A stretch of 64,000 nt of DNA from an uncultured Alphaproteobacteria bacterium (GTDB taxonomy: Bacteria; Pseudomonadota; Alphaproteobacteria; HIMB59; GCA-002718135): assembly GCA_902586695.1 (NCBI GenBank), contig CACIIL010000003.1, positions 1,639-65,638 of the forward strand. The letters run 5' to 3'. Within the stretch, counting starts at the first letter, position 1. Every line of letters starts with the position of its first letter. The notes under the pieces were generated by a model that worked only from the letters and a program-made list of their open reading frames with translations, was not told the origin of the DNA and searched no databases. Positions 7,903 to 29,605 of the stretch are shown piece by piece. Position numbers and translations under genes: made by a program.

Positions 7903-7904
7903 TC

Positions 7905-8840: not shown

Positions 8841-8844
8841 TTAT

Positions 8845-10817: not shown

Positions 10818-11264
10818 CTAAATCTCTAAATAATAATTATAATATTCTCTGTCTCTTTTGTAATCAAGTGATTCATACAGCGCTTGAGCTTTTTTATTAT
10901 TAATAGCAGTTGATAATTCTATTAATTTAATCTTTTTTTTACGACCAAATTTTTTAGCAATATCCATTAAAGATTTGCCTATTCCATTTTGTCTAAATTC
11001 TTTTTTTACATATAAATCATACAAAACTAATTTTTTGTTAATATTTAAAGAATCAAATGTTTCATAAAGTTGTACAAAACCCACGGGTTCTTTATCGCAA
11101 AAACACAAAAAAATAGTAGATTCTTTTTTAGAAATTCTTTCCTTAATATATTGAGTTGATTTTTTAATTTCAGTTTTATATTTGTAAAACTGTCTATATA
11201 AATCAAATAGAAAACCAACTTCTTTATAATTTTCTTTTTTTGCTTTAATAATTTTTATTTTCAT
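10818..11264 (-). CDS. GNAT-family N-acetyltransferase
   Basis: 148 aa with the acetyl-CoA-binding segment (RQNGIGKSLMDIAKKFG). It overlaps the upstream MFS gene by 4 nt. Confidence 0.75.
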   Translation of the reverse strand: MKIKIIKAKKENYKEVGFLFDLYRQFYKYKTEIKKSTQYIKERISKKESTIFLCFCDKEPVGFVQLYETFDSLNINKKLVLYDLYVKKEFRQNGIGKSLMDIAKKFGRKKKIKLIELSTAINNKKAQALYESLDYKRDREYYNYYLEI

Positions 11265-13816: not shown

Positions 13817-13836
13817 GATTTAACTGTATCATTCAC

Positions 13837-13850
13837 TGAATGAGCATTCA
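13837..13850. promoter_or_regulatory. Palindromic operator candidate TGAATGAGCATTCA (site 1)
   Basis: Perfect 14-bp palindrome, flanked by further ATTCA/TGAAT half-sites (attcacTGAATgagcATTCAatgaaa). It lies exactly 20 nt upstream of the aminotransferase ATG at 13816. Confidence 0.6.
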
Positions 13851-13869
13851 ATGAAATAATTTTTATATT

Positions 13870-14646
13870 CTATTTATCTTTCCAATTCGGATCTGTTTTT
13901 TTAACAAAAGAAGAAGCTCCTTCTTTTAGATCTTCACTTCCATAAACTTTTTTTACCGATTCTAATGATCGCAAAATTTTAAATGATGGTATTTCCTTTT
14001 CGTTTTCTGTTTCTCTTAAAACTTCTTTAATTGAAGAATAAATTAAATTAGGTCCTTTTGAAATTTTATCAGCTATTTCCCAGGCTCTTTTTAATAAATC
14101 ATTTGTTTTAACAATTTCATTTACTAAACCCCAGTGTTTTGCTTCTTTGACATCCATCCATCTTCCAGTCATTAAAAACTCAACAGCTATGTGATAGGGT
14201 ATGCGTCTTCTTAATTTTATTGTAGCTGCGTCAGCTACAACTCCTACATTGATTTCAGGTAACGCAAATGTTGCGTGTTCTGCTGCAATTATAATATCTG
14301 CTGAAATCATAATTTCAAAACCACCACCGCACGCAATACCATTAACAGCTGCTATAATAGGTTTGTTCATATTAGGTAACTCTTGCAGTCCTCCAAATCC
14401 ACCAACACCATAATCTGCATCAGCAGCTTCTCCTTCATTAACAGCCTTTAGATCCCATCCGGCAGAAAAAAATTTTTCTCCGCCACCTGTAACGATAGCT
14501 ACTTTAAGTTTTGGATTATCTCTAAAGTCAGCAAATATGTCTCCCAACATTATACTTGTCTTAGCATCTATCGCATTAGCTTTTGGTCGATCGATAGTTA
14601 TCTCTAATATTGATCCTTCAATTCTTGTTTTAACTGGTTTGTCCAT
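13870..14646 (-). CDS. caiD: Crotonobetainyl/carnitinyl-CoA hydratase-like enoyl-CoA hydratase
   Basis: Near-colinear with E. coli CaiD as I recall it: GSILEITIDRPKANAIDAKTS, GEKFFSAGWDLKA, IAAVNGIACGGGFE, DPNWKDK C-terminus. Confidence 0.75.
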   Translation of the reverse strand: MDKPVKTRIEGSILEITIDRPKANAIDAKTSIMLGDIFADFRDNPKLKVAIVTGGGEKFFSAGWDLKAVNEGEAADADYGVGGFGGLQELPNMNKPIIAAVNGIACGGGFEIMISADIIIAAEHATFALPEINVGVVADAATIKLRRRIPYHIAVEFLMTGRWMDVKEAKHWGLVNEIVKTNDLLKRAWEIADKISKGPNLIYSSIKEVLRETENEKEIPSFKILRSLESVKKVYGSEDLKEGASSFVKKTDPNWKDK

Positions 14647-14654: not shown

Positions 14655-16691
14655 CTATATTAAATAATGTATTAAAGCATCTACAGCAAATACACCTTTA
14701 CCTTTTTTACAAACTATTAGTGGATTTATATCAACTTCTGAAATTTTATCTGAATTTTTTTCAGCAAAAACAGCTACTTTTAATATTGTATTTATTAATG
14801 CATCAATATCAGCACTATCACTTCCTCTAAAACCAAATAATATTTTGCTAAATTTAAGTTTTTTTATTTCATCCAAAATTATTTTTTTATTTAAAGGTAA
14901 AAGTAGGGTAGTCGTATCTTTAAATAATTCGGTATAAATACCACCAGCACCTAATATTATTGTAGGTCCAAATTGGTTATCATTTTTTATGCCTATTATC
15001 ATTTCAAAAATCGAATTTGATATCATTTTTTCAATTAAAATATTACCTCTAAATTTATTTGTCTTTTGCTTTAATTCTTTTTCATTATTAATGTTAGTAA
15101 TAACACCTCCAATTTCAGTTTTATGAAAAACTGTAGTTGAATGTATTTTTGCAACTAAAGGAAATCCTATTTTTTTACAATCTCGCAAAATATTTTTTTT
15201 ATTTGTAATTAAAGATTTTGGTGTAGATATTTTAAATTTTTTTAGGATTAATTTTGATTCATATTCTGTATATGTTTTAATTTTATTTTTATAATTTTGT
15301 AAATTTTTTGAAATTTTAATTTCACTAAAATTACTCCAAGCTTTTGAAATTTTTATTGAATTACTTATGGCTAGTAAACTCTCTGACATACCCTGAAGTG
15401 GGACAACTCCTGACCTGAGACATTTTTCTCTTAGATGTTTAGGAAGGGTATCTGAAAGTGAAGAAATAATCGCTCCATTTTTTTTTATTTTTGATGATTT
15501 TATAAATTGATCTACTATAGCATCCCATTCTGCAGTGTCACAATCTTCTATATTTGGAAAATCTAACATCAGTGCATTTAAACCAAAATTAGTTTTAAAT
15601 ATTAATTTAAATGTTTTTGCTAATTGCTTAGGGTCATTCCAGTTGTATGTTTGTAGATCAAATGGATTTGAAATTATAACACTTGGGTGATTAACTTTTT
15701 TTAATTCATTTTTTATTTTTGTAGGTATTTTACCAAAATTTAACGACAAATTTTCTGCTACGTCTCCTATCATAGCCATATCACCACCTGATGGGCCCAT
15801 AATTGAAATTTTATCGTTATTTAAAACACCATGAGTGTGAAATAATTTTAAAATTTCACATAATTCTCCTAATGTATTACATCTAGCTACACCCATTCTT
15901 TGAAATAAAGAATCATATATATCTTCTTTCCCACTTAATGATCCAGTATGTGTTAATATTGTTTGAGACGCAGTTTTAGATCTGCCTACTTTAACTAATG
16001 CTATAGGAATTTTTTTTAATCTGGATTTTTTAAATACTTTTATTAACTTTTCTGTATTGGTAAAACTTTCAGCATAAATTCCAATAGCAGTAACTCTCTT
16101 ATCATCTAAAGCAAAATTAATGGCATCTTCTATAGTTATTTGTGATTGATTGCCGAGAGAAATTATATACCCAATTGGTAAAGATCTATTATTAAAACTA
16201 ATCGTATTACCAATAGTTCCGCTTTGACATATAATAGCAACACCTTTTTTAGTGGGTTTGCCTGCTACTTGATCAGACCATACTGAAATTCTATCCAAGT
16301 AATTTATAAATCCATAACAGTTTGGTCCAAGGAATGGCATTTCGCCAGCATTCCTAATTAGCTCATTAGTTTTATTAGTACCTTCTTTAGAATTAAGTTC
16401 AGAAAATCTCGAAGCTAAACAAACAGTTCCTCCAACACCTATGTCAGCAATATCTTTTATTAATTTTACTGTTTGATCTCTTGAGACAGCTAGATAAACG
16501 CAATCAGGTACTTCTGGAAGATCTTTAATATTTTTATAATATTTTTTTGCTTTGGAACTTTTACGTGAAGGATTAATATGCCAAACTTTACCTTGATAGC
16601 CAATAGTTTTATTGCCATCATAAACAAAGTCTGCCCAATACCCTCCAACTAAAGCAAGGCTTTTTGGTCTAAAAAGTTTTTTTAAATTCAA
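14655..16691 (-). CDS. ADP-forming (NDP-forming) acyl-CoA synthetase, fused CoA-binding/ligase and ATP-grasp domains
   Basis: 678 aa. The N-terminal CoA-binding fold (FRPKSLALVGG) and succinyl-CoA-synthetase-like flavodoxin domains are followed by a C-terminal ATP-grasp (FPLVAKIHSTTVFHKTEIGGV). Confidence 0.75.
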   Translation of the reverse strand: MNLKKLFRPKSLALVGGYWADFVYDGNKTIGYQGKVWHINPSRKSSKAKKYYKNIKDLPEVPDCVYLAVSRDQTVKLIKDIADIGVGGTVCLASRFSELNSKEGTNKTNELIRNAGEMPFLGPNCYGFINYLDRISVWSDQVAGKPTKKGVAIICQSGTIGNTISFNNRSLPIGYIISLGNQSQITIEDAINFALDDKRVTAIGIYAESFTNTEKLIKVFKKSRLKKIPIALVKVGRSKTASQTILTHTGSLSGKEDIYDSLFQRMGVARCNTLGELCEILKLFHTHGVLNNDKISIMGPSGGDMAMIGDVAENLSLNFGKIPTKIKNELKKVNHPSVIISNPFDLQTYNWNDPKQLAKTFKLIFKTNFGLNALMLDFPNIEDCDTAEWDAIVDQFIKSSKIKKNGAIISSLSDTLPKHLREKCLRSGVVPLQGMSESLLAISNSIKISKAWSNFSEIKISKNLQNYKNKIKTYTEYESKLILKKFKISTPKSLITNKKNILRDCKKIGFPLVAKIHSTTVFHKTEIGGVITNINNEKELKQKTNKFRGNILIEKMISNSIFEMIIGIKNDNQFGPTIILGAGGIYTELFKDTTTLLLPLNKKIILDEIKKLKFSKILFGFRGSDSADIDALINTILKVAVFAEKNSDKISEVDINPLIVCKKGKGVFAVDALIHYLI

Positions 16692-16694: not shown

Positions 16695-17846
16695 TTATGC
16701 TCCAAGGGGTCTTAGAAGTGAACGTGAAATAATATGACGTTGAATTTCACTGGTTCCTTCCCAAATTCTTTCTATTCTTGCATCTCGCCATATTCTTTCA
16801 AGTGGAATATCTGACATCAATCCCATTCCACCAAGGATTTGAATAGCTTCATCTGAGATTCTGCTTAACATTTCAGTACAAAATAATTTTGTCATAGCCG
16901 CATCTTGAGATGTTAATGTTTTTTGATCAATTTTCCAAGCAGACTCCATTAATATCAAGTTTGCTAGTTTAATTTCTGTAGCCATATCAGCTAATTTAAA
17001 TGAAACACCCTGAAATTTTCCAATTACTTTTCCAAATTGTTTTCTATTTGCAGACCAATCCAAGGCTATATCAAAAGCTCTTTCGGCTCTAGATACAGAA
17101 GTTGCCGCAACAGTTAAACGAGTTGCTTCTAACCAAACATTCATTAGCTCAAAGCCTTTATCTTTTTCACCAAGAATATTTCTTGCAGGAATTCTGCAAT
17201 CATTAAAGTTTAAAATATTATTAACGTATCCTCTGTGAGAAACACAGTCATAACCTTTTGCAACCTCAACTCCTTTTTGTTTTAAATCAACTAAGAAACA
17301 CGAAAGTAAATTTCTACCTTTTTCATCTTCACCTGTTGAGGCAAAAAGTACTACAAAGTCAGATATGTGTGCATTAGATATAAAATGTTTTGTTCCATTA
17401 ATCACCCAATCATTACCATCCTTAACTGCTTTTGTTTTCATCCCCCGTAAATCTGAACCAGCTCCTGGTTCTGTCATTGCTATGCAATCTTTTCTCTCAC
17501 CTGTGATAGCTGGTTTTAAGTATTCATCGATTAATTCACCTTCACAGGCCATTAAGATATTTTGTGGTCGCCAAGCAACTTCCGCTAAAGCAAGTGATGC
17601 AAAACCGAGATGTTTTTCAACTAAAGTTAAATCAAAAGCATTTAAACCACCACCACCATGTTCAGTGGGCATATTGCAAGCATACAAACCTGCTTTAATA
17701 CTTTTTTGCTTAATTTCATCATACAATTCTTTTGGTAAATTATTTGTTTTTTCTAATAATTCTTCGTGTTGAAGCAATTCTGCTTTTACAAATGACTTAG
17801 TAGTATCAATTAAAAGATTCTGTTCTTCTGAAAGATTAAATTCCAT
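16695..17846 (-). CDS. Acyl-CoA dehydrogenase
   Basis: 383 aa with TEPGAGSD, QFGK.IG.FQ and the C-terminal IWEGTSEIQRHIISR. Confidence 0.85.
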   Translation of the reverse strand: MEFNLSEEQNLLIDTTKSFVKAELLQHEELLEKTNNLPKELYDEIKQKSIKAGLYACNMPTEHGGGGLNAFDLTLVEKHLGFASLALAEVAWRPQNILMACEGELIDEYLKPAITGERKDCIAMTEPGAGSDLRGMKTKAVKDGNDWVINGTKHFISNAHISDFVVLFASTGEDEKGRNLLSCFLVDLKQKGVEVAKGYDCVSHRGYVNNILNFNDCRIPARNILGEKDKGFELMNVWLEATRLTVAATSVSRAERAFDIALDWSANRKQFGKVIGKFQGVSFKLADMATEIKLANLILMESAWKIDQKTLTSQDAAMTKLFCTEMLSRISDEAIQILGGMGLMSDIPLERIWRDARIERIWEGTSEIQRHIISRSLLRPLGA

Positions 17847-17852: not shown

Positions 17853-19055
17853 TTATGTAAACGCAGGTGTTTCATTTCTTCTTGGATTGTTAAAAAATTG
17901 CTTTTTAACCACTTTACATTCAGCCCAAATTTTTCTGTAATCCAGCTCTTCTGGATGATAAATTTCAGCATAAACATTTGATCCTAATTTATAATGTTCT
18001 TTGCTAACAAATCCAATCGCAATATTAGATTTTAGGACAGGGGACCACATTGCAGCTGTCACTATACCAATTTCTTTGGCTTGATTTTTTTTACTATTAT
18101 CGTAGAGTACAGAACCAACGGCAGGTTTATCTCCTTCAATATCTAATCCCACGAGTTTTTTTTCAGGACCTTTTTCTTTGTGTCTAATTAATGCCTGTTT
18201 TCCAGTAAAATACTCTTTATTTAGATTTACTAACCAGCCCAAACCTAATTCATAGGGGTTTCTCATTCTATTGGGTCTTAAAGCTTGTTCCGCAGACATA
18301 AAATCTACATTAGGTTGGATAAAACCAGCTTCAATTCTCACCATCTCAAGTGCATTCATTCCAGCTGCTAGTACTTTATAGTCTCTATTAAATTTAAATA
18401 AACTATCCCATACACCAATGGCTTGAGAAGGGTCACACCATATTTCATAACCTAAGTCTCCAGAAAAACCTGTTCTGGAAATTGTAACATTATGATTTTC
18501 AATATTATAATTATTAAAATGAAATGGTTTTAGGTTTTCTATATTTTCTACTTTTAATAAATTTAATATCTTACAAGATAATGGCCCTTGAAAAGCTAAA
18601 GCTGCAATTGATGGACTTATATCCTCAACACTTGCTTTAAATCCCGTAGCTGTGTCAGAAAACCAATTTAGATTTCGTTCTGCACAAAAAATTCTAAAAT
18701 GATTTTCATTAAAGCAAAATATTGTTCCATCATCAATTACCATTCCATCTTCATTGCACCATATGCCATAGACAACTTGGTTTGATTGAATATTAGTAAT
18801 ATCTTTTGTGATTAATTTATTAATAAACTTTTTAGCATCCTCACCTTTGATATCATATTTATGCATAGGAGTAATATCAATTACCCCAGCTGTATTTCTC
18901 ATTGAAGTATATTCAAGTTCTGTTGATGAGTACTCTTTAGCAACTTTATAACCAGCCCATCTATACCAATCATTTGCATAACAATGCTCAGATGTTCTTT
19001 CGTGAAAAGGTGTCTCTAAGAGAGGTTTTTTGTATGATATTTTTGATGTATTCAT
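17853..19055 (-). CDS. Aminomethyltransferase-family (GcvT/DmdA-like) folate-binding protein, stand-alone
   Basis: 400 aa with TPFHERT, EYTSMRNTAGVIDITP, SRTGFSGDLGYEIW and VRIEAGF, all typical of the GcvT fold. Its start overlaps the upstream flavoprotein's stop by 1 nt (TAATG). Confidence 0.75.
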   Translation of the reverse strand: MNTSKISYKKPLLETPFHERTSEHCYANDWYRWAGYKVAKEYSSTELEYTSMRNTAGVIDITPMHKYDIKGEDAKKFINKLITKDITNIQSNQVVYGIWCNEDGMVIDDGTIFCFNENHFRIFCAERNLNWFSDTATGFKASVEDISPSIAALAFQGPLSCKILNLLKVENIENLKPFHFNNYNIENHNVTISRTGFSGDLGYEIWCDPSQAIGVWDSLFKFNRDYKVLAAGMNALEMVRIEAGFIQPNVDFMSAEQALRPNRMRNPYELGLGWLVNLNKEYFTGKQALIRHKEKGPEKKLVGLDIEGDKPAVGSVLYDNSKKNQAKEIGIVTAAMWSPVLKSNIAIGFVSKEHYKLGSNVYAEIYHPEELDYRKIWAECKVVKKQFFNNPRRNETPAFT

Positions 19056-20521
19056 TATTTTAAATCCTCTATTACTTTTTTTGCAGCATTAAGACCGTTG
19101 ATACCTGTTAATCCTCCTCCAGGATGGGTTCCTGCACCACATAAATATAAACCATTTATAGGTGTAGAATATTGAGCTGATCCATAAAAAGGTCTCATCA
19201 TTAATAATTGATCTATTTCTAAATCACCGTGATGCCAATGCCCTCCTGCTATATTAAACTTTTCTTCCATTTTATTGGGAGTGATGAGTTTTTGTTTTAC
19301 TATTTTCATATCTGGAATAAATTTACTTAAAACTGAAACACATCTTTCAATTATTTCATTTTCTTGATGATTAGTATTAATTAAATACGGAACATAATAA
19401 ACATTAGCTGATAAGGTTTTTTGATTAACGTAAAACTCAAGGCATGGATTTTCAGAATATTTGTTATATTTATTAGCATTAAATGCATGTTCTATGTACT
19501 TAATACCAGGAGCATAAATAAACTTTCCGTTCATTTTTTTATCAATATTATTAATGTTAATTTCATTTTCTAACTCTAATTCAAGCTTAGCAACATTTCC
19601 TTTATTTCTAAAATTTTTAGTTCTTCTAATAAAATCAGTATCTAGGATTTCTGCACCTAATAAATTTAAATAAGTTGTTTTAGGGTCAGCATTAGACATT
19701 ACATATTTTGATTCAAAAACCTCACCATTTGTTAATTGAACGCCAGTGACAGAGTTATTTTGAGTTAATATTTTTTTAACTTCAGAGGATTTAATGATTT
19801 CAACAGTATTTTTATTACAGCAATCTTCTAACTGATTAATATATTCTGCAACTTCTATTTTGTTTAAATTAAAAATATTGTCATTGATAGCTTGTTTATA
19901 AAGTAAAGTTAATATTGAGCCTGGAGATCTTGGACCTAGGTTTGTTCCTAAAACAGCTTCATGGGATAATAGACCCATTAGATTATTGCTATTTAAATTA
20001 TCTTCTAAGTCATCTGCGATATTTAAACCAATTACTCTTAATAGTTCACGCATATTTTTTTTACCTAATTTTCTAATTTTCCATCCCATAGAAATTAATT
20101 GAAATAAGTCAGCTCTTTTACCTGATTTAACTCTTGGTGGTTTTTGAAACATAAATGCACCAAGAGTTTTTGAAAAGAATTTGTAGTTATTGATAATTGA
20201 CAAGAATTTCTTTTGATCATTTTCATCAGCATTTGTTTGAACAAAAGATAATTTGCCATTTTTATCTGACAAAATTGTATGATTTTGATTATCCTCTAGT
20301 GATATAATATTATTTGAATGATTAATATTATTAACATTAATCCCTAATTCTTTTTTAATGATTGGTGAGATACAGTTTATTGATTCTGCATATTCCGCTA
20401 ATCCTCCAACGTTTTCGTTTTTTTCAATTACCAAAACTTTTTTTCCTTTTTTTGATAAGTATGAAGATGCAACTAATCCATTGTGACCTCCACCAATTAT
20501 TATGACATCAAATTTTTTCAT
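19055..20521 (-). CDS. FAD/NAD(P)-dependent oxidoreductase, CrtI/PYROXD2-like (divergent paralogue)
   Basis: 488 aa with DVIIIGGGHNGLVASSYL and the C-terminal GLYLCGAGTHPGGGLTGINGLNAAK. It overlaps the upstream paralogue by 4 nt (ATGA). Confidence 0.75.
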   Translation of the reverse strand: MKKFDVIIIGGGHNGLVASSYLSKKGKKVLVIEKNENVGGLAEYAESINCISPIIKKELGINVNNINHSNNIISLEDNQNHTILSDKNGKLSFVQTNADENDQKKFLSIINNYKFFSKTLGAFMFQKPPRVKSGKRADLFQLISMGWKIRKLGKKNMRELLRVIGLNIADDLEDNLNSNNLMGLLSHEAVLGTNLGPRSPGSILTLLYKQAINDNIFNLNKIEVAEYINQLEDCCNKNTVEIIKSSEVKKILTQNNSVTGVQLTNGEVFESKYVMSNADPKTTYLNLLGAEILDTDFIRRTKNFRNKGNVAKLELELENEININNIDKKMNGKFIYAPGIKYIEHAFNANKYNKYSENPCLEFYVNQKTLSANVYYVPYLINTNHQENEIIERCVSVLSKFIPDMKIVKQKLITPNKMEEKFNIAGGHWHHGDLEIDQLLMMRPFYGSAQYSTPINGLYLCGAGTHPGGGLTGINGLNAAKKVIEDLK

Positions 20522-22146
20522 ATGTAATGTGTTGATATTTTCATCTTTAAATCTTTTAATATTTCTCTTGCTGCATTAGCTCCAGGTGCACCCATAACAC
20601 CTCCGCCAGGATGTGTGCTTGATCCGCACATATATAGATTTTTGATCGGTGTCTTATATTGAGCATAACCAGGTACTGGACGATTAAACATTAATTGGTC
20701 CATGGTTAGTTCACCTTGGAATATATTGCCTTCAGTTAAACCAACCTCAGCTTCTATTTCTTTAGGAGTTCTAATTTCTGCATGATTGATAATATCATTA
20801 AAGTTTGTGGAGTAATTGCCAATTCTATTCATTACATGTTTACCAAATTCAAGACGTTTCTCCTCAGTCCAACCTCCATTAGCTAAATTGTAGGGTACAT
20901 ATTGAATAAATACAGACATATAATGTTTTCCTTGTGGTGCCATAGTTGGATCATTGATGCTTGGAATGCACATATCAACATAAGGAAATTGTGACCACTT
21001 ACCATCCTTCCAATCATCGTAAGCTCCTTCCATCTCTTCTATGTTTTGCGTTATATGCAGATCACCAGTGCCAGCAGGATCACCAACTGGAATACTCTTC
21101 CAAATAGGAAGATCATCAAGAGCAATATTTAATTTTCCTGATGAGCCTCTAATTTTAAAATTTTTAACAGCTTTATAAAAATCACTAGGTAATTCTTTTT
21201 CTTCTACAACTTTTAAAAAAGTTCTTTTTACATCAAGGTTAGAAACTATTTTATCTGCATAAATTTCATCACCATTCTCAAGAACAAGTCCGTAACTTTT
21301 GTTATTTTTGATAAGAATCTGACTTACTGGTGAACCAGCTTTTATTTCACCATTGTTTGATTTTAAAGATGACGCCATAGCTTTTGTAATCGAGCCCATT
21401 CCTCCTCTGGAATAACCCCAAGCTCCAACAGTCCCATCTACTTCTCCCATGTAATGATGTAATAATACATAAGCTGATCCAGGGGAATAAGGCCCAAGCG
21501 CTGTACCTATTATTGCAGATCCTGCTAAATGTACTTTTACTATATCTGATTCAAAATATTCTTCTAAATAATCTCTTACGCTCATTGTCCAAAATCTTAT
21601 GGTGTCGTAAATTTCTTTTTCACCCAAACCACCAAGCTCATCTTTAGCTGCAAAGTATTTTGCAAATTCAAAAAGACCCATAATATCTTTTGGTTTAAAA
21701 GAAGTAGGGTCAGGAGGAGTCATTTTTAAAAGAGGTTTGATAATTTTGCACTGCCTCATTACATCTTTGCCAAACCTATCATAAGCTTCAGCATCTTTTT
21801 TTGAAAATTGAGCGATAGATCTGTAAGTTAAATCATGATCTTGATAATGTGCATAAAATCTACCATCATTAAGCATACTCGCACTACCTTCATAAGGTAT
21901 AATTTGAAGCCCATGATTTGATAATTCTAAATCTCTAAATATCTCAGGTCTTAATAAGCTGCAAACATATGAGCAATTAGAATAAGTCCAACCTGGATGC
22001 AATTCTCTGCTAACAGCTGCGCCTCCAACATATTCATGTCGTTCCACAACAATGACTTTGAGACCCGCCTTAGCCAAATAACAAGCTGTGGTTAATCCAT
22101 TATGACCACCACCAATTATAGCAACATCATATTTAGTTTTGTTCAT
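20518..22146 (-). CDS. FAD/NAD(P)-dependent oxidoreductase, PYROXD2-like (phytoene-desaturase superfamily)
   Basis: 542 aa, colinear with human PYROXD2 as I recall it: YDVAIIGGGHNGL, SYVCSLLRPEIFRDLEL, IAQFSKKDAEAY, GSAYVLLHHYMG, GAWGYSRGGMG, NIFQGELTMDQLMFNRPVPG, LYMCGSSTHPGGGVMGAPG. Confidence 0.75.
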   Translation of the reverse strand: MNKTKYDVAIIGGGHNGLTTACYLAKAGLKVIVVERHEYVGGAAVSRELHPGWTYSNCSYVCSLLRPEIFRDLELSNHGLQIIPYEGSASMLNDGRFYAHYQDHDLTYRSIAQFSKKDAEAYDRFGKDVMRQCKIIKPLLKMTPPDPTSFKPKDIMGLFEFAKYFAAKDELGGLGEKEIYDTIRFWTMSVRDYLEEYFESDIVKVHLAGSAIIGTALGPYSPGSAYVLLHHYMGEVDGTVGAWGYSRGGMGSITKAMASSLKSNNGEIKAGSPVSQILIKNNKSYGLVLENGDEIYADKIVSNLDVKRTFLKVVEEKELPSDFYKAVKNFKIRGSSGKLNIALDDLPIWKSIPVGDPAGTGDLHITQNIEEMEGAYDDWKDGKWSQFPYVDMCIPSINDPTMAPQGKHYMSVFIQYVPYNLANGGWTEEKRLEFGKHVMNRIGNYSTNFNDIINHAEIRTPKEIEAEVGLTEGNIFQGELTMDQLMFNRPVPGYAQYKTPIKNLYMCGSSTHPGGGVMGAPGANAAREILKDLKMKISTHYI

Positions 22147-22166
22147 TGTATTTTCTTATATTTCTT

Positions 22167-22180
22167 TGAATGAGCATTCA
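22167..22180. promoter_or_regulatory. Palindromic operator candidate TGAATGAGCATTCA (site 2) in the divergent tetR / flavoprotein-operon spacer
   Basis: The 14-mer is identical to site 1. It lies exactly 20 nt upstream of the minus-strand ATG at 22146 and 42 nt upstream of the TetR ATG. Confidence 0.65.
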
Positions 22181-22222
22181 ACCAAATTTCTTGTAAAATC
22201 AAGCTTTTTATGAAAAACTGTA

Positions 22223-22861
22223 ATGAATTTATTAAATATGAAACAAAGAAATCTTAGATCAGAAAATAAGAAAAATAGTAATTTAAAATTAATTTCTTCA
22301 ACAATTAAAAATTTATCAAAAAAAGGAATAAATGAATTAACTATGCATGATGTTTCGCAGGGAGCAGGCCTTTCCCAAGGTATAGTAAATTTTCATTTTA
22401 AAAGTAAGGAACTTTTATTAATAGAAACATTAAAGTATATTTCTAACGAGTATCTAGATTCATTTCAAAGAAGTATCGCAAAAAAAGGTAATGATCCAAG
22501 AAAAAAAATCATTGGAATTGTAGAAAATGATTTTAGTAAAAAAATTTGCACTAGAGAAAAAATTGCAGTGTGGTTTACTTTTTTTAGTGAAATTAAATAT
22601 AAACCCGCTTATCATCAAATTTGTAAAGAACGAGATATGTATTACCAATCTTTAACTGAAAATATATTTGATGAACTTATAAAAAAAGAAAAAGTGAAAT
22701 TATCTAAAAAAAATATTTCTAGAGGATTTCAAGCTTTGATTATGGGATTATGGTTGGATCAACTTGAAGATCCTGATACTTTTAACAGGATACAAGCAAA
22801 GAAAATATGTTTTGAGTTTATTAAATCTAATTTCCCCAAACAATTTAAGGGAATGTTTTAA
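22223..22861 (+). CDS. TetR-family transcriptional repressor, BetI-like
   Basis: HTH (LTMHDVSQGAGLSQGIVNFHFKSK). The effector-domain segments AVWFTFFSEIKYKPAY and ALIMGLWLD parallel E. coli BetI (KAWLAFWASSMHQP, ALIDGLWLR) as I recall it. Confidence 0.75.
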   Translation: MNLLNMKQRNLRSENKKNSNLKLISSTIKNLSKKGINELTMHDVSQGAGLSQGIVNFHFKSKELLLIETLKYISNEYLDSFQRSIAKKGNDPRKKIIGIVENDFSKKICTREKIAVWFTFFSEIKYKPAYHQICKERDMYYQSLTENIFDELIKKEKVKLSKKNISRGFQALIMGLWLDQLEDPDTFNRIQAKKICFEFIKSNFPKQFKGMF

Positions 22862-22863: not shown

Positions 22864-24042
22864 ATGTATAGCGGCATGACACCAAAAGCTTTGGAATGGC
22901 AATTAAAGATAAAAAAATTTGTTAATGATGAATTAATTCCTTGGGAGGTGCATGCAGAAAAAAATGAAGGTGAGTTACCCAAGGAAATTGAAAAAAAACA
23001 TCGGGAGATTGCTATTTCACTAGGTTTGCCGGGTATGGGTATTTCAAAAGAAAGCGGAGGCTTAGGATTAAATATGTTTGAACAGATGATAGTTTGGGAA
23101 CAATTAGGCCGAGTTACAAATGCATTATGCTGGTGTTTTTCAGAAGCTCAAGATTGGATGGAAAATAATTTTACTGATTATCAAAAAGAAAATTATTTTA
23201 GACCACTTTTAAACGGTACTAAAAAAGAATGTTATGCGATTACAGAAAAAGGCGCAGGTTCAGATGTGGAAGGCTCAATTGAAACAACAGCAGAAAAAAA
23301 GGGAGATCAATATATTATTAATGGCGAAAAATGGTATGTTACAAGTGCAAATCTAGCTGATTTTTTCTTTTTACAGGCAAAAATTAAATCTGGTTCAAAT
23401 GAGGGCAAGCATTCACTATTTATAATTGATAAGGATGAGAAAGGTATTGAGTTAATAGATAGCCCTAAGTTTAGTCATACATATGCTCATCATCATTCTA
23501 TTTATAGGTTTGATAATGTTTCAATTTCAGAAAAAAACATAATTGGTAATGAAGGTATTGGCATGGATTATACGCATTCCTGGTTTAGGCATGAAAGACT
23601 AGGTATAGCTGCAAGATGCTGTGGGGCTGCTCAAAGATTAATTGATGAAGCAACAATTTTTGCAAAAGAAAGAGAATCTTTTGGTGATAAAATTTCAAAC
23701 TATCAAGCTATACAATTCATGTTAGCAGATAGTGTAAATGAATTAGCTTCAACTAGATTGATGCTTTATGAGGTTTGTAAAGCTCATGATGCAAAACAAG
23801 ATGTAAAAATTTTACATGGAAAATGTTCTATGATTAAATTACTTGCATCTGAAATGGCTAATAGAATTGCTGATCGTGCAGTGCAGATTTTTGGTGGAAG
23901 AGGATATATGAGAGAAAATGTTGCAGAGCGTTATTATAGAGAATTAAGAGTGGACCGTATTTGGGAAGGAACAAGTGAAATTCATAGAATTATTATTGCA
24001 AATTCTCTTTATAAAAGAGGTTTGAAATCTTTAATTGAATAA
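22864..24042 (+). CDS. Acyl-CoA dehydrogenase (second copy)
   Basis: 392 aa with TEKGAGSD, FGDKISNYQAIQF and the C-terminal IWEGTSEIHRIIIAN. Confidence 0.85.
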   Translation: MYSGMTPKALEWQLKIKKFVNDELIPWEVHAEKNEGELPKEIEKKHREIAISLGLPGMGISKESGGLGLNMFEQMIVWEQLGRVTNALCWCFSEAQDWMENNFTDYQKENYFRPLLNGTKKECYAITEKGAGSDVEGSIETTAEKKGDQYIINGEKWYVTSANLADFFFLQAKIKSGSNEGKHSLFIIDKDEKGIELIDSPKFSHTYAHHHSIYRFDNVSISEKNIIGNEGIGMDYTHSWFRHERLGIAARCCGAAQRLIDEATIFAKERESFGDKISNYQAIQFMLADSVNELASTRLMLYEVCKAHDAKQDVKILHGKCSMIKLLASEMANRIADRAVQIFGGRGYMRENVAERYYRELRVDRIWEGTSEIHRIIIANSLYKRGLKSLIE

Positions 24043-24063: not shown

Positions 24064-24948
24064 ATGATAGGTTATTGGAAAAAAGTTTATGCAAAAAATG
24101 ATAATGTTAAAGCCTATACTTTATTATCACCCGCTCTAATTTTAATTATTTTGGCTATGGTTGTGCCAATGGCACTAATGTTGAGCTTTAGTATGTTTAC
24201 TCAAGTTAACATGATGGAGATAGATTATACTTTTACATTTCAAAGATATATTGATTTCTTTCAAAAAAATTTGCTGGTCACACTTCTCATAAAGTCTATC
24301 AAAATATCATTTTTAGTAACTTTAATTACACTGATCACAGCATACCCAGTTTGTTATTACATCGCTTTTTATGTCAAAAAAAACAAAATGTTGTGGCTTG
24401 TTTTACTCACTTTGCCTTTTTGGACATCTTATTTACTAAGAGTATTCTCTTGGAAGATTATTCTTGGAACAAAAGGAGTTATAAACTCTTCATTGATCAA
24501 CGCTGGAATTCTCAGCGAACCTCTTACATTTCTTATGTATTCAGAAACCGCGGTAGTTATTACGCTTACTCACGCATGGGCAGCATTTGCATTACTACCT
24601 TTATATGTTTCGTTAGAAAAAATTGACTTTTCGTTTATTGAAGCAGGAAGAGATCTTGGACTCTCTCGATTTGAAGTTTTTTGGAAAATTACATTTCCAT
24701 TATCTTTACCTGGTGTAATAGGAGCGATATTAATCATATTCATTCCTACAGTAGGTGATTATGTCACTCCAGCCTTACTTGGAGGAACTGATGGTCGTAT
24801 GCTTTCGAATATGATCCAGGCTTACTTTGGAAAAATAAATAATATTCCTCTTGGCGCAGCTTCAGCTACAATTATGTTAACAACTGTTATACTCATAACA
24901 ATAATTGTGTCGAATGTAACAAAAAGACTTACACAAAGGTTAACTTAA
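24064..24948 (+). CDS. ABC transporter permease, PotB-like
   Basis: 294 aa, 6 TM segments, EAA loop IEAGRDLGLSRFEVFWKITFPLSLPG. Confidence 0.8.
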   Translation: MIGYWKKVYAKNDNVKAYTLLSPALILIILAMVVPMALMLSFSMFTQVNMMEIDYTFTFQRYIDFFQKNLLVTLLIKSIKISFLVTLITLITAYPVCYYIAFYVKKNKMLWLVLLTLPFWTSYLLRVFSWKIILGTKGVINSSLINAGILSEPLTFLMYSETAVVITLTHAWAAFALLPLYVSLEKIDFSFIEAGRDLGLSRFEVFWKITFPLSLPGVIGAILIIFIPTVGDYVTPALLGGTDGRMLSNMIQAYFGKINNIPLGAASATIMLTTVILITIIVSNVTKRLTQRLT

Positions 24949-24950
24949 AA

Positions 24951-25760
24951 ATGAACGAAAAAAATAATACATTACTGATTTATACCCTTCTTTATTTTGT
25001 ATTTCTTTATGTGCCAGTTTTATTCTTACCTATATTTAGTTTTAACGATGCAAATTATATGTCATTCCCTCTCGCTGGATTTACAACGGAGCACTATGAA
25101 GAGATGTGGTCAAAAAGAAATCTACATAAGGCTCTATGGGCAAGTATAAAAGTAGGAGTTGTTGCGAGTGTCATTAGTACAACAATTGCACTATTTGCAG
25201 CAAAGGCATTTGCTCGATATAAATTTAGAGGGGAAAAGATTTCTTATGGAGGTATTATGATGCCATTTTTGATACCTGAAATTATCTTGGCTGTAGCTAT
25301 ACTGATAATTTGGATCAATCTTGGATTTAAATTAGGGCTAGTCCCAGTAACAATTGGCCATACTTTATTTTGTACACCTTTTGCAATGTTAATACTTATA
25401 GCCCGTATTGAAGGTTTTGATTTTTCACTTGAAGAGGCCTCTAGGGATTTAGGAGAGAATGCTTGGGGAACATTTTTTAGAGTTTCTTTTCCATTGTATT
25501 TACCTGGAATAGTTGCAGCTCTTCTTCTTAGTTTCATAATTTCTTTTGATGAATTTATTCTTGCATTTTTTTTAACTGGAAGTGACGCAACGTTACCTAT
25601 GTATATGTGGGGTCAAATGAGATTTGTTCAGAAGTTACCTCATGTACTGGCTTTAGGAGCAGTAATTATTGTTTTTACTACGTTTATTGTTTTGTTAGCA
25701 TTCTGGTTAAGAAATGTTGGACAAGGTAAAGCAAAGAAAGATATAGCTTTAAAATTATAA
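24951..25760 (+). CDS. ABC transporter permease, PotC-like
   Basis: 269 aa, EAA loop EEASRDLGENAWGTFFRVSFPLYLPG. Confidence 0.8.
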   Translation: MNEKNNTLLIYTLLYFVFLYVPVLFLPIFSFNDANYMSFPLAGFTTEHYEEMWSKRNLHKALWASIKVGVVASVISTTIALFAAKAFARYKFRGEKISYGGIMMPFLIPEIILAVAILIIWINLGFKLGLVPVTIGHTLFCTPFAMLILIARIEGFDFSLEEASRDLGENAWGTFFRVSFPLYLPGIVAALLLSFIISFDEFILAFFLTGSDATLPMYMWGQMRFVQKLPHVLALGAVIIVFTTFIVLLAFWLRNVGQGKAKKDIALKL

Positions 25761-25766
25761 AAAATT

Positions 25767-26849
25767 ATGAGCAATTCATTTATACAAATCAATAATATTT
25801 CAAAACATTTTAAAGATGTAAAGGCAGTTGATGATGTTTCATTTGAGATTAAAGAAGGTGAATTTTTTTCACTTTTAGGACCTTCTGGATGTGGAAAAAC
25901 AACATTGTTGAGGTTATTGGCAGGATTTGAATATCCAACTTCTGGAAATCTATTAATTGATGGGATAGATATTACTGCATTACCTCCAGACAAAAGACCT
26001 ACAAATATGGTTTTTCAAAACTATGCAATTTTTCCTCATCTTAATGTTGAAAAAAATATTAAATTTGGACTAAGAAAACTTGGCTTAAGTCATGATGAGA
26101 TAGGTAATAGAGTTAAAGATGTTCTTAAATTAGTAAAGCTTGAGGGCTATGAAGAAAGGTTTAGCAATCAACTATCTGGTGGTCAAAGACAGCGTGTTGC
26201 TCTTGCTAGAGCTTTAGTAAGGCAACCAAAAGTTCTATTATTAGATGAACCTCTAGGTGCTTTAGATAAAAAACTAAGAGATGAAATGCAATTAGAATTA
26301 AGAACTCTTCAAAAAAATATTGGAATTACTTTTGTATTTGTCACTCATGATCAACAAGAAGCCATAAGTATGTCAGACAGAGTTGCAGTTATGAATGATG
26401 GAAAAATTCAACAATTATCAGCACCCAACGAACTTTATAAGAATCCAAAAAATATATTTGTAAGTGATTTTATAGGTGAAACAAATTTTCTTAAAGCTGA
26501 GACTAAATCAAGTGATGGAGGATTCATCAATGTTTCAATCGAAGAATTGGGAGAATTTAAAATTAAAAATAATTTAAATATCGCAGCAAATTCTTCTGAT
26601 GTTGTTTGTAGTGTTCGCCCAGAATCTATGATGATTTCAAACGTGAAATCCGATTGGGATATTTGTCTTGATGCTAAGATTAGACAGACTTCATATTTAG
26701 GAGAAATGACTAGATTTTACGTTGAAGTTAAAGGAATAGATAAGACTATCACTGTTTCTTCACAACATTTTGACAACCAATCTTTTGAAAATAACGAGTG
26801 TTTTATAAGTATTAGTTTAGAAGATATTTCTTTATTGAATAAAAAATAG
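25767..26849 (+). CDS. ABC transporter ATP-binding protein, PotA-like
   Basis: Walker A GPSGCGKTT, signature LSGGQRQRVALARAL, Walker B LLLDEPLGALD and a C-terminal TOBE-like domain. Confidence 0.85.
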   Translation: MSNSFIQINNISKHFKDVKAVDDVSFEIKEGEFFSLLGPSGCGKTTLLRLLAGFEYPTSGNLLIDGIDITALPPDKRPTNMVFQNYAIFPHLNVEKNIKFGLRKLGLSHDEIGNRVKDVLKLVKLEGYEERFSNQLSGGQRQRVALARALVRQPKVLLLDEPLGALDKKLRDEMQLELRTLQKNIGITFVFVTHDQQEAISMSDRVAVMNDGKIQQLSAPNELYKNPKNIFVSDFIGETNFLKAETKSSDGGFINVSIEELGEFKIKNNLNIAANSSDVVCSVRPESMMISNVKSDWDICLDAKIRQTSYLGEMTRFYVEVKGIDKTITVSSQHFDNQSFENNECFISISLEDISLLNKK

Positions 26850-29547: not shown

Positions 29548-29567
29548 AGATATTGCTTTAATTTAAT

Positions 29568-29581: not shown

Positions 29582-29605
29582 ATTATTTTTTTCATATAAA
29601 TTTAT

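Follow-up and report, generated by a model that had tools for sequence, protein, structure and literature searches.

What do two flavoproteins and a folate-binding protein do together, when their genes are held in one tightly packed unit? The window, by which we mean the whole stretch of 64,000 nucleotides analysed here, from an uncultured alphaproteobacterium, carries three consecutive minus-strand genes joined by overlapping stop and start codons, as a preliminary description of this DNA had claimed:

20518..22146, minus strand: FAD-alpha, a PYROXD2-type flavoprotein of 542 aa, first gene of the operon
19055..20521, minus strand: FAD-beta, a divergent paralogue of 488 aa, whose start overlaps the alpha stop (ATGA)
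17853..19055, minus strand: a stand-alone GcvT-like folate-binding protein of 400 aa, whose start overlaps the beta stop (TAATG)

The alpha/beta overlap lies at 20518-20521, where the minus strand reads 'tac ata TGA' over 'ATG aaa aaa', and the beta/GcvT-like overlap at 19053-19057, read as 'aaa TAA' over 'ATG aat'. The preliminary description proposed that the trio acts as a unit for folate-linked oxidative N-demethylation. That proposal gains support from synteny, from scores unlike those of GcvT or DmdA, from conserved motifs, from neighbouring PurU genes, from a domain fusion and from human genetics. On gene context and homology we put at roughly 60% the probability that the trio works as a single functional unit: a split oxidative N-demethylase, coupled to tetrahydrofolate, whose substrates are tertiary and/or secondary N-methyl amines, and probably one of an uncharacterised kind.

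Conservation of the three-gene unit

Searching with the flavoprotein yielded 61 genome loci with adequate flanks, from Gamma- and Alphaproteobacteria, Acidobacteriota, Gemmatimonadota, Chloroflexota, Planctomycetota and Dormibacterota; a second FAD paralogue adjoins alpha in 60 of them, and alpha, the second paralogue and the GcvT-like gene occur together in 57. In the reciprocal search, all 34 metagenome loci found via the GcvT-like protein and having adequate flanks contain at least two adjacent flavoprotein genes. Linkage is thus near-obligate in both directions, and at least six bacterial phyla share the trio. Of 75 junctions between two FAD genes, 19 have a start/stop overlap of 4 nt, as have 11 of the 31 between an FAD and a GcvT-like gene; the chance expectation is roughly 5% at any one codon. 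The three-gene linkage is more than chance and not a local accident.

Does linkage mean a single enzyme? Alpha and beta might instead be free-standing amine oxidases that act in sequence, with the GcvT-like protein a soluble formaldehyde scavenger and no three-subunit enzyme at all. Variable gene order speaks for this arrangement, the GcvT-like gene being divergent or upstream in Acidobacteriota and beta preceding alpha in L026-L029 and L051, as do the pocket residues that beta conserves for itself, which are expected of a separate enzyme. Animal PYROXD2, moreover, occurs alone, with neither beta nor a GcvT-like partner, so alpha may need neither and the idea of an obligate complex is weakened. 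The scavenging role is the one proposed for DmmD, a stand-alone GcvT-domain protein serving dimethylamine monooxygenase, and DmmABC works without DmmD in E. coli (PMC5520151). However, start and stop codons overlap far more often than expected at both junctions, and the two-way co-occurrence across phyla is closer than a dispensable helper would usually show. We regard this arrangement as a serious possibility that falls short of even odds. It concerns architecture only, the chemistry being the same as in the split-demethylase reading.

The flavoproteins and the GcvT-like protein

Alpha aligns end to end with oyster PYROXD2 (XP_011443058; 38% identity over 545 columns, E 5e-121), which bears out the colinearity with this family given in the preliminary description. 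When 1.84 billion representatives were searched exhaustively, PYROXD2 clusters came within the top ~30, and across phyla the alpha sequences form a monophyletic clade to which eukaryotic PYROXD2 is sister. Beta is, as described, a divergent paralogue, sharing 29% identity with alpha along its whole length (E 3e-59) and just 25% with PYROXD2; it retains the GxGxxG...E and HPGGG motifs, and the residues invariant in alpha and PYROXD2 are swapped in beta for a conserved set of its own. Alpha exceeds the Pfam Amino_oxidase cut-off with 59 bits, and beta likewise exceeds it. Family membership alone does not settle amine oxidation, because the CrtI superfamily also holds C-C desaturases, ketolases and enoate dehydrogenases, and the poor structure model of alpha (pLDDT 59) yields no active-site argument.

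The third protein contains GCV_T (189 bits) and GCV_T_C and no fused flavoprotein domain, in agreement with its earlier description as a stand-alone protein of GcvT/DmdA type. It is not a conventional orthologue of either: its top curated matches are Tdm, through its C-terminal half (252 bits), the part of this TMAO demethylase that captures formaldehyde, and GcvT (227 bits against a cut-off of 300, and 184.5 against 235.85 for a second model), with DmdA lower still (166 bits against 410), all of these, Tdm included, being under cut-off. D109, G110, RTGxTGDLGYE, R240 and E242, motifs of the GcvT/Tdm type, are nearly invariant in 57 orthologues. The earlier statement that no characterised system has this composition holds as far as we searched, no precedent having been found for the flavoprotein partner family, the paired subunits or the breadth of distribution. 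For a GcvT-like protein that assists an N-demethylase as a separate helper, DmmD does set a precedent.

Could this simply be an ordinary glycine-cleavage T protein lying by chance beside carotenoid-type desaturases or ketolases? CrtO, a beta-carotene ketolase, is the best curated match of alpha, the source annotations read 'phytoene dehydrogenase-like', and the closest solved relative of the GcvT-like protein is T. maritima GcvT. Yet the flavoprotein scores, like those for GcvT, are far below cut-off (CrtO, 282 against 1000; CrtI family, 108 against 238), and the trio is conserved alongside amine-catabolic genes in several phyla, so that this reading is effectively refuted. Among the 58 largest ORFs of the window, which were annotated, we found no gcvH, gcvP or carotenoid gene.

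Operator boxes and the surrounding island

The preliminary description placed the trio at the head of an operon under a palindromic box, and the palindrome does lie between alpha and a divergent regulator gene. The boxes and the regulator are:

22166..22181: perfect palindrome TTGAATGAGCATTCAA (TTGAATG-AG-CATTCAA), in the divergent promoter region between alpha and the BetI-type TetR gene
22223..22861, plus strand: BetI-type TetR-family regulator (TetR_N and TetR_C_6)
13836..13851: second operator-like box CTGAATGAGCATTCAA, which differs from the palindrome by one mismatch, upstream of the aminotransferase gene
34543-34558: third box TTGAATGCTTATTCAA, just upstream of the GbcA-like Rieske gene

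The regulator scores 105.7 and 101.4 bits against BetI models, under cut-off; in many loci its gene and the trio are divergently oriented. The box recurs between TetR and FAD-alpha genes without mismatch in L001, with one mismatch each in L008 and L013, and in degenerate form in L007, L014 and L015; its conserved form at trio loci, together with a BetI-like repressor, is TTGAATG-N2-CATTCAA.

The other genes considered here are:

16695..17846, minus strand: acyl-CoA dehydrogenase 1 (Acyl-CoA_dh N, M and C domains)
14655..16691, minus strand: ADP-forming acyl-CoA synthetase (CoA_binding_2, Succ_CoA_lig and ATP-grasp_5 domains)
13870..14646, minus strand: CaiD-like enoyl-CoA hydratase (ECH_1, 201 bits)
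12440..13816, minus strand: omega-amine:pyruvate (class III) aminotransferase (NCBIfam PRK07036, 661 bits, exceeding the cut-off of 618)
11261..12430, minus strand: MFS transporter (MFS_1, 158 bits)
10818..11264, minus strand: GNAT acetyltransferase (weak RimI-like match), in 4-nt overlap with the MFS gene
22864..24042, plus strand: acyl-CoA dehydrogenase 2 (domain match)
24064..26849, plus strand: Pot-type ABC importer, two permeases and an ATPase (PotB-like, 185 bits, under cut-off)
26900..27988, minus strand: PotD/PotF-like solute-binding protein (weakly PotF-like, 45 bits in NCBIfam and E 1e-15 in PDB)
33186..34524, minus strand: DAO-type FAD oxidase gene, frameshift-split and divergent from the Rieske gene (two frames match one DAO gene)
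34569..35810, plus strand: GbcA-like Rieske oxygenase alpha subunit (340 bits with the GbcA model, cut-off 670)

The transcription unit described earlier has to be extended past the trio to include acyl-CoA dehydrogenase 1, the acyl-CoA synthetase and the hydratase. The dehydrogenase holds the same position in L085 and has 59% identical homologues in Steroidobacteraceae loci, an equivalent of the synthetase follows the GcvT-like gene in L007, L009, L016, L017, L086 and L087, and among curated models the hydratase scores best with crotonobetainyl-CoA hydratase (297 bits, cut-off 500). The second box sits in the 53 nt that separate the hydratase gene from the aminotransferase gene, and downstream of it come the aminotransferase, the MFS transporter, the GNAT gene and a 189-aa ORF. 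Amine, putrescine, polyamine and GABA:pyruvate transaminases are the nearest structures to the aminotransferase; orthologues 47-57% identical to it adjoin the trio in L001, L010-L012, L019, L024, L030 and L042, and in L083 an Aminotran_3 gene directly follows the GcvT-like gene. The MFS transporter recurs in L083 and L085, and the GNAT gene is linked to the trio in both of these and in L001.

On the other side of the regulator, orthologues of acyl-CoA dehydrogenase 2 (57-58% identity) adjoin the TetR gene and trio in L007, L009 and L015-L017, and alphaproteobacterial loci, as well as L001, have orthologues of the Pot-type importer (46-55%) linked to the trio. A SAR11 'PotD', SAR11_1336, binds glycine betaine and DMSP and not polyamines (PMC11485210). 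The two DAO frames, which meet at a run of seven A/T (34016-34022), together correspond to one DAO gene, which in L001 comes after the aminotransferase gene (43% identity). Quaternary-amine genes do surround the trio, as had been noted (a ProVW/ChoVW-type ABC transporter, BetA-like, carnitine-dehydrogenase-like, BKACE and GbcA-like Rieske genes), and so do polyamine genes (AguA, AguB, GlnA-like, amidase and Pot-type ABC).

Recurrent neighbours of the trio elsewhere are PurU, a Rieske oxygenase, the omega-amine:pyruvate transaminase, aldehyde dehydrogenase, amine transporters and the BetI-like repressor. PurU (422 bits, exceeding its cut-off) adjoins the trio in 12 loci. The Rieske gene is linked to it in 26 genome loci, within the operon in L011 and L083, and the Rieske gene of the window, which is probably co-regulated with the trio, is 36-39% identical to trio-linked Rieske genes. 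Amine-type neighbours include a PuuC/BADH-like aldehyde dehydrogenase, DAO-type oxidases, GlnA-like ligases and Pot or APC amine transporters. ETF genes do not recur near the trio, and no electron acceptor is evident there. One PYROXD2-like protein, P0158, carries a fused GFA formaldehyde-activating domain.

Candidate substrates and pathway

Which amines might the trio demethylate? The quaternary substrates first proposed, trimethylammonium compounds such as gamma-butyrobetaine and carnitine, are unlikely in view of flavin chemistry and the linked Rieske oxygenase. It is established chemistry that a quaternary trimethylammonium nitrogen, having neither a lone pair nor an N-H, is closed to flavin amine oxidation; the quaternary-amine demethylases known so far belong to the Rieske oxygenases or the methyltransferases. 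Because a Rieske oxygenase is linked to the trio and shares its box here, the trio more probably acts on the later tertiary and secondary amines, and the conserved omega-amine:pyruvate transaminase suggests that the product carries a terminal primary amine. The accessory genes suit several different N-methylated omega-amines.

In the pathway that we infer, the Rieske oxygenase would probably strip the first methyl from a quaternary precursor and the trio would complete demethylation. FAD-alpha and FAD-beta, as putative flavin amine dehydrogenases or oxidases, would convert N-CH3 to an iminium, acting either as a heteromer or consecutively; by analogy with DMGDH and SARDH they most likely differ in specificity, for example with one taking dimethyl to monomethyl and the other monomethyl to primary amine. 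The GcvT-like protein would bind tetrahydrofolate and trap the C1 unit as 5,10-methylene-THF, avoiding escape of formaldehyde, and exit of this unit via the folate pathway would account for PurU beside the trio in other lineages. The transaminase may then turn the primary amine into an aldehyde, and the carbon skeleton could be oxidised and, in CoA-ester form, processed by the synthetase, the dehydrogenases and the hydratase, the BetI-like repressor controlling the set through its presumed binding at the TTGAATG-N2-CATTCAA boxes.

The GcvT-like protein might alternatively work as the DMSP demethylase DmdA does, moving a methyl group from a quaternary ammonium or sulfonium compound to THF to give 5-methyl-THF, while the flavoproteins carry out a separate oxidation, C-C desaturation or C-N cleavage at a non-methyl carbon of the product. 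PurU adjacency is compatible with such a route, quaternary-amine genes are abundant in the island, and DmdA, whose model the protein does match, is a GcvT-family enzyme prominent in SAR11. The operon order of GcvT-like gene, ligase, acyl-CoA dehydrogenase and hydratase resembles DmdA-B-C-D, and among the desaturases and enoate dehydrogenases of the CrtI superfamily there are tandem paralogues, ChcC1/ChcC2 for example (weak matches here). Nevertheless we consider this route improbable: the DmdA score is far under cut-off and lower than those for Tdm and GcvT, the GFA fusion indicates formaldehyde and not methyl transfer, a Rieske oxygenase, the type of enzyme normally used on quaternary amines, is already linked to the trio and probably co-regulated with it, and the CoA genes of the window, used as queries, had no match beside the trio in the sampled Acidobacteriota loci.

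Human genetics bears on the same choice. The metabolite GWAS link between the PYROXD2 locus and methylated amines that the preliminary description mentioned is borne out: variants associate with N6,N6-dimethyl-lysine (P 1e-181 to 1e-214), and further mQTLs involve N2-acetyl-N6,N6-dimethyl-lysine, N6-methyl-lysine, N-methylpipecolate, dimethylamine and an N-methyl NMR singlet. All of the associated compounds are tertiary or secondary N-methyl amines, which argues against methyl transfer from a quaternary donor and agrees with N-demethylation of tertiary and secondary amines; if the trio is a folate-linked N-demethylase, it would suggest a function that can be tested for PYROXD2, an orphan enzyme in humans.

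The gene trio and its conservation across bacteria

The locus is built around three consecutive minus-strand genes, which encode two flavoproteins (protein 1 or alpha, and protein 2 or beta) and a GcvT-like protein (protein 3 or T). ORF calls bear out the layout given in the preliminary description, including its overlapping junctions: read on the minus strand, the stop of gene 1 and the start of gene 2 share ATGA, and the stop of gene 2 and the start of gene 3 share TAATG.

Genes of the trio
20518-22146 (-), gene 1, alpha, 542-aa ORF
19055-20521 (-), gene 2, beta, 488-aa ORF
17853-19055 (-), gene 3, GcvT-like, 400-aa ORF

Our best reading is that these genes encode a split, tetrahydrofolate (THF)-coupled oxidative N-demethylase for tertiary or secondary N-methyl amines. 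The surrounding window has a G+C content of about 29% and carries housekeeping genes beyond about 38.5 kb; a scan of it for promoters and terminators was uninformative in such AT-rich DNA (76 promoter-like sites against 82 expected). A 135-aa ORF at 17365-17772 (+), antisense within the acyl-CoA dehydrogenase gene, is most likely a chance ORF.

The association of the three genes, noted at first in this one locus, recurs widely. A diverse alignment of protein 1, run against one genome per species, found homologues at 46-65% identity in at least 80 loci. The matches listed include Steroidobacteraceae, Woeseiaceae, Porticoccaceae, Haliea, Kiloniella laminariae DSM 19542, Mesorhizobium, Leisingera and Rhodobacteraceae, as well as many Acidobacteriota, Gemmatimonadota, Chloroflexota, Planctomycetota and Dormibacterota; no Pelagibacterales genome is among them. 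An exact look-up of protein 1 gave no record. Its nearest relatives are marine-metagenome proteins with 84-91% identity, and one member of a cluster 91% identical to it bears a Pelagibacterales label, which makes the source SAR11-like. Among the matches listed, 61 loci have 3 kb or more of upstream and 3.5 kb or more of downstream sequence; in these, a second flavoprotein paralogue adjoins the first in 60, a GcvT-like gene lies within 3.5 kb in 58, and both are present in 57. Gene order varies (alpha-beta-T, beta-alpha-T, or T divergent from or upstream of alpha-beta), and linkage kept through such rearrangement argues for selection over shared ancestry of one arrangement. The reciprocal test gave the same picture: an alignment of the GcvT-like protein, searched against the independent JGI metagenome collection with at least 3.5 kb required on both sides, led to 34 loci, all of which have at least two adjacent PYROXD2-like genes.

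The exact 4-nt overlap of start and stop codons is found at 19 of 75 FAD-FAD junctions and 11 of 31 FAD-T junctions, against about 5% expected by chance; choosing the start codon nearest the upstream stop biases gaps towards small values, and only the exact -4 class was used. These overlaps and the near-obligate co-occurrence speak for a putative physical complex. It is quite possible, if on balance doubtful, that alpha and beta are instead separate enzymes acting in sequence with a soluble folate helper: animal PYROXD2 is free-standing, and DmmD, a stand-alone GcvT-domain protein from another N-demethylating system, is dispensable in E. coli.

Two unusual loci belong here as side observations. 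A 3.9-kb contig of a MAG labelled 'Methanobacteriota archaeon' (L077, JBQTHW010000275.1) carries an alpha-type flavoprotein gene and a Rieske gene, and since the contig is so short a binning error is likelier than an archaeal occurrence. An ENA contig with about 2x coverage (L002) encodes P0103, an apparent 904-aa alpha-beta fusion; its neighbouring genes are fragmented, so the fusion is probably a frameshift artefact, and we have not counted it as evidence of interaction.

The two flavoproteins and their GcvT-like partner

Both flavoproteins score above the cut-off of the Pfam Amino_oxidase family. Each has two motifs, GxGxxG...E at the N-terminal end and HPGGG at the C-terminal end; in protein 1 these read IIGGGHNGL...VVE and THPGGG, and alpha, beta and eukaryotic groups all conserve them. 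When 1.84 billion representative proteins were searched exhaustively, 2,106 relatives came out at E <= 1e-30. The top 30 or so matches include proteins of 575-613 aa in which the alignment starts 20-65 residues in, and by name these are PYROXD2 of oyster, mayfly and flatworm. The proposed kinship of protein 1 with PYROXD2 is therefore full-length and colinear, with 38% identity to the oyster protein over 545 columns (E 5e-121; query positions 4-534 against residues 41-582) and 38-41% identity to mayfly, flatworm and choanoflagellate relatives. Protein 2 is indeed a divergent paralogue, 29% identical to protein 1 (E 3e-59) and 25% identical to oyster PYROXD2 (E 9e-40). Animal PYROXD2 resembles protein 1 in its colinearity and in invariant residues missing from beta, and differs from it by an N-terminal extension of about 20-65 residues.

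In a distance-based neighbour-joining tree, built without bootstrap, the alpha proteins of all phyla form one clade, and animal and choanoflagellate PYROXD2 are its sister group. The beta proteins lie outside the alpha clade and never nest within the alpha proteins of their own phylum, which makes the alpha/beta duplication an old one and PYROXD2 a protein of the alpha type. Residue conservation follows the same division. Of 110 alpha columns that are at least 95% invariant, PYROXD2 retains 78 and beta no more than 53 to 60; S59, Y60, R66, Y226, H230, H231, W243, F413 and N474-I-F are common to alpha and PYROXD2 and replaced in beta. The replacements in beta are themselves conserved (A-H, Y/L-R, H-W-H), which suggests for beta an enzyme or subunit whose pocket differs, and not a decayed copy. 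We know of no beta paralogue or GcvT-like partner of animal PYROXD2. An AlphaFold2 model of alpha, based on an alignment of 22 sequences (64-91% identical), was too poor to use (mean pLDDT 59, pTM 0.54), and its poorly modelled regions (42-85, 210-252 and 467-498) hold the residues specific to alpha and PYROXD2. Foldseek searches of the PDB with this poor model gave the CrtI family first, followed by flavin amine oxidases (NicA2, MAO and putrescine oxidase), at TM-scores of only 0.26-0.38.

CrtI, CrtO and CrtD belong to the same flavoprotein superfamily as the trio's flavoproteins, and CrtI is the closest solved relative by sequence (4DGK, E 2e-17). The best curated matches of the two flavoproteins are likewise carotenoid enzymes, but far under cut-off, at 282 against 1000 for CrtO, 108 against 238 for crtI_fam and 77 against 580 for CrtD (NCBIfam). 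Unlike carotenoid desaturases and ketolases, the trio has no carotenoid gene context among the 58 largest ORFs annotated in the window, and its conserved neighbours are amine-catabolic and folate genes. Against these cut-offs and this context, it is extremely improbable that the locus is simply an ordinary GcvT beside carotenoid enzymes.

Protein 3 consists of GCV_T (189 bits) and GCV_T_C (42 bits), both above the Pfam cut-offs, and nothing else, in keeping with the earlier remark that no flavoprotein domain is fused to it. It falls under every curated cut-off. With scores of 227 against 300 for PRK00389, 184.5 against 235.85 for TIGR00528 and 130 against 459 for PRK13579 (GcvT models), and of 166 bits against 410 for the DMSP demethylase DmdA, it is neither a conventional GcvT nor a conventional DmdA. 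The model of the TMAO demethylase Tdm gives 252 bits against a cut-off of 1100, over positions 387-754 of 763 only (the C-terminal half), and the SoxA model 158 bits. No gcvH or gcvP was found among the 58 largest ORFs annotated in the window, nor in the Pfam-labelled loci L001, L002 and L083-L087; the conserved neighbours of gene 3 are the two flavoprotein genes. Among 57 trio-linked orthologues, D109 is conserved in 98%, G110 in 100%, R240 and E242 in 100%, and R-T-G-x-T-G-D-L-G-Y-E in close to 100%; these motifs have counterparts in T. maritima GcvT and in Tdm, with which they align.

Other genes point to a link with folate and formaldehyde. PurU, a formyl-THF deformylase (422 bits, above cut-off), adjoins the trio in at least 12 loci, and in Acidobacteriota it directly follows the flavoprotein pair. 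One relative from a Logan assembly (P0158, 816 aa) has an N-terminal GFA domain (PF04828, 59.7 bits), the domain of glutathione-dependent formaldehyde-activating enzyme, joined to a flavoprotein of PYROXD2 type; its place in the tree beside a choanoflagellate sequence makes a eukaryotic origin probable. Together with the conserved motifs of protein 3, these features lend indirect support to a THF-dependent step that would form 5,10-methylene-THF from an N-methyl group.

Comparison with known N-demethylating systems

The chemistry proposed for the trio is of a known kind. As in dimethylglycine and sarcosine dehydrogenases (DMGDH and SARDH), dimethylglycine oxidase (DMGO) and 4-methylaminobutanoate oxidase (MABO), a flavoprotein would oxidise the N-methyl group and a GcvT-fold module would capture the C1 unit on THF. 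The GcvT-like domains of DMGDH and of DMGO can be aligned with protein 3, and DMGDH and SARDH are a paralogous pair for successive methylation states, as alpha and beta may be. Those enzymes, however, fuse a DAO-type flavoprotein to the folate domain in one chain, whereas the trio has two separate flavoproteins of Amino_oxidase/CrtI type and encodes the folate protein by a gene of its own. The heterotetrameric sarcosine oxidase SoxABGD is also a multi-subunit folate-linked N-demethylase with a GcvT-like module, but its catalytic subunit SoxB is of DAO type, its GcvT-like module is fused into SoxA (about 960 residues), and it has small gamma and delta subunits, all features that the trio lacks. 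To our knowledge, all characterised folate-linked flavin N-demethylases use DAO-type flavoproteins. We propose that CrtI/PYROXD2 proteins are a second, unrelated flavoprotein lineage recruited to this chemistry, and that their version of it is split and has a pair of paralogous subunits.

The C-terminal domain of Tdm captures formaldehyde on THF. This half of Tdm is the best curated match of protein 3 (PDB 9Q59, E 2e-40), and the two have in common an A-L-(D/E) variant where true GcvT has A-R-D; Tdm differs in being one flavin-free chain of about 790 residues whose N-terminal half is catalytic. An organisational parallel is DmmD of Ruegeria pomeroyi and Methylocella silvestris, a stand-alone GcvT-domain protein encoded, like protein 3, in the same operon as an N-demethylating oxidoreductase. 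DmmD has been proposed to conjugate released formaldehyde to H4F, but its partner, the dimethylamine monooxygenase DmmABC, is a three-subunit enzyme and not a pair of CrtI/PYROXD2-type flavoproteins (PMC5520151). All SAR11 genomes lack dmmDABC (PMC5520151). The 'general amine oxidase' of N-limited Pelagibacter (PMC5520151), which we considered as a possible instance of the trio, is SAR11_1304, a monomeric sarcosine oxidase of DAO type.

The preliminary description knew of no characterised system of this composition. This stands for the literature we searched, which leaves most subscription journals outside and in which we found no description of the gene combination or of bacterial catabolism of N-methylated omega-amino acids; it has to be qualified for the stand-alone folate helper, which has a precedent in DmmD. 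As far as searched, there is no earlier description of such a system with this flavoprotein family, with an alpha/beta pair, with so broad a spread over phyla or with a connection to PYROXD2.

Pathway context, candidate substrates and human PYROXD2

Past the trio, the operon runs on through an acyl-CoA dehydrogenase (ACAD) gene, a gene for an ADP-forming acyl-CoA synthetase and one for a CaiD-like hydratase. Then the palindromic box occurs a second time, followed by an omega-amine:pyruvate transaminase (of the class acting on amines, putrescine, polyamines and GABA with pyruvate), an MFS transporter, a GNAT protein and a 189-aa ORF. In the divergent direction lie the TetR gene, another ACAD gene and the genes of an ABC importer of Pot type. 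We considered whether the ACAD, synthetase and hydratase genes, absent from locus L001, are an unrelated insertion and rejected this, as equivalents adjoin the trio in L007, L009, L016, L017, L086 and L087.

The palindrome noticed beside the trio is a perfect TTGAATG-AG-CATTCAA with gene 1 on one side and a divergent TetR gene of BetI type on the other. The window holds five matches with 0-2 mismatches, against 1.3 expected by chance, and four of the five are intergenic.

Boxes in the window
22166-22181, divergent region between trio and TetR gene, perfect palindrome
13836-13851, before the aminotransferase gene, second copy
34543-34558, in the DAO/Rieske divergent pair, before the GbcA-like Rieske gene, near-perfect
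29567-29582, divergent promoter between amidase and GlnA-like genes, near-perfect
3441-3456, just before the BetA-like gene, near-perfect

Their positions suggest one BetI-like regulon spanning about 35 kb. This box also stands between the TetR gene and alpha in L001, L008 and L013, and is degenerate in three gammaproteobacterial loci. Other loci show the accessory genes in different orders, and a Rieske alpha-subunit gene is present in at least 26 genome loci (80 listed).

Gene order in selected loci
L083, alpha-beta-T-transaminase-Rieske-DAO-PotBCA, one operon
L011, Fe-S flavoenzyme-alpha-beta-T-transaminase-Rieske
L086, transaminase-alpha-beta-T-synthetase-hydratase-DAO-GlnA-like
L009 (Kiloniella), transaminase-alpha-beta-T-synthetase-aldehyde dehydrogenase

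Several neighbouring genes call for comment in their own right. The binding protein at 26900-27988 (-), beside the ABC genes at 24064-26849 (+), is weakly PotF-like, and the PotD-annotated SAR11_1336 binds glycine betaine and DMSP (PMC11485210), so the polyamine label of this 'spermidine/putrescine' ABC system is unreliable. The DAO-type FAD oxidase gene at 33186-34524 (-) falls into two ORFs that overlap but lie in different reading frames, with the break at a seven-A/T run (34016-34022); together the parts match a single DAO gene after the aminotransferase in L001 (43% identity). A GlmU-like gene at 40196-41474 (+) also appears split: its 282-aa ORF holds the N-terminal uridyltransferase part only, and a 146-aa ORF overlaps its end, with the break beside an A7 run at 41026. 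The DAO gene may contain a homopolymer sequencing or assembly error or be a genuine pseudogene; this second homopolymer frameshift suggests sequence errors in the assembly rather than biology. Genes at 6895-9735 (-) resemble the carnitine-to-glycine-betaine module of an Arctic SAR11 genomic island, and the gene list of that paper does not mention the trio (PMC12421898). The 189-aa ORF (10247-10816, -), last in its gene string, has no NCBIfam match; it recurs in L085 at the corresponding position, has copies of 53-55% identity in three trio-bearing Steroidobacteraceae loci, and is probably an uncharacterised protein linked to the pathway.

What would such a trio act on? Flavin oxidation of amines requires a lone pair on the nitrogen, so that a quaternary trimethylammonium group, one of the substrates first suggested, should not be a substrate of the flavoproteins. 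The characterised quaternary-amine demethylases known to us belong either to the Rieske oxygenases or to the methyltransferases. All linked parts find a use in the simplest model, drawn from gene content, which has four steps: a Rieske oxygenase would remove the first methyl group, alpha and beta with the folate protein would remove the remaining one or two, the transaminase would deaminate the terminal primary amine, and the carbon skeleton would be oxidised and handled as a CoA ester. In bacteria, the candidates for the substrate are N-methylated omega-amino acids (derived from gamma-butyrobetaine, beta-alanine betaine or valerobetaine), N-methylated diamines and N6-methyl-lysines.

Human PYROXD2 is, as far as we know, an orphan enzyme with no known reaction. 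The link of its locus to methylated amines, raised in the preliminary description, is present in human genetic data: variants in PYROXD2 are associated with N6,N6-dimethyl-lysine in CSF (P 5e-181 to 4e-214), N2-acetyl-N6,N6-dimethyl-lysine (P 3e-85) and a 2.854-ppm NMR singlet (P < 1e-307), and also with N6-methyl-lysine, N-methylpipecolate and dimethylamine. N6,N6-Dimethyl-lysine, N-methylpipecolate and a urinary N-methyl signal are extremely strong metabolite QTLs of PYROXD2. These associations fit the reading of the trio as acting on tertiary and secondary amines. Published work places PYROXD2 in mitochondria, and a 2026 paper mentions only its mitochondrial role and these metabolite associations; a pairing of PYROXD2 with demethylase activity was not found in the literature searched, with most subscription journals outside the search.

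The human data also bear on the role of protein 3. It is clearly unlikely that it transfers a methyl group directly, in the manner of DmdA, while the flavoproteins catalyse another reaction: its score pattern, the GFA fusion, the human associations and the presence of a Rieske enzyme all speak against this.

A more speculative extension, which we consider rather unlikely as it stands, is that the whole PYROXD2 family consists of N-methyl-amine demethylases, of which the bacterial alpha/beta/GcvT-like trio is the folate-coupled form. If so, human PYROXD2 would demethylate free N6-methyl- and N6,N6-dimethyl-lysine and related amines, which would explain one of the strongest human metabolite QTLs. 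It might then be the gene for 'epsilon-alkyllysinase', an activity reported from rat kidney in 1963-64, which forms lysine and formaldehyde from free N6-methyl-lysine (PMC3936616). On the same supposition, the trio could be the missing secondary and tertiary methylamine enzyme of SAR11 and other marine bacteria without dmmDABC (PMC5520151). 

The reading of the trio as a folate-coupled demethylase would bear on the marine nitrogen and C1 cycles, through the final demethylation of methylated amines and osmolyte breakdown products in SAR11. The split form spans at least six bacterial phyla, and marine metagenomes hold it in abundance. The bacterial context gives a concrete and directly assayable hypothesis for orphan human PYROXD2, which reportedly underlies an infantile mitochondrial disorder. 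The annotations 'phytoene dehydrogenase-like' and 'aminomethyltransferase / glycine cleavage T' are probably wrong for thousands of proteins.
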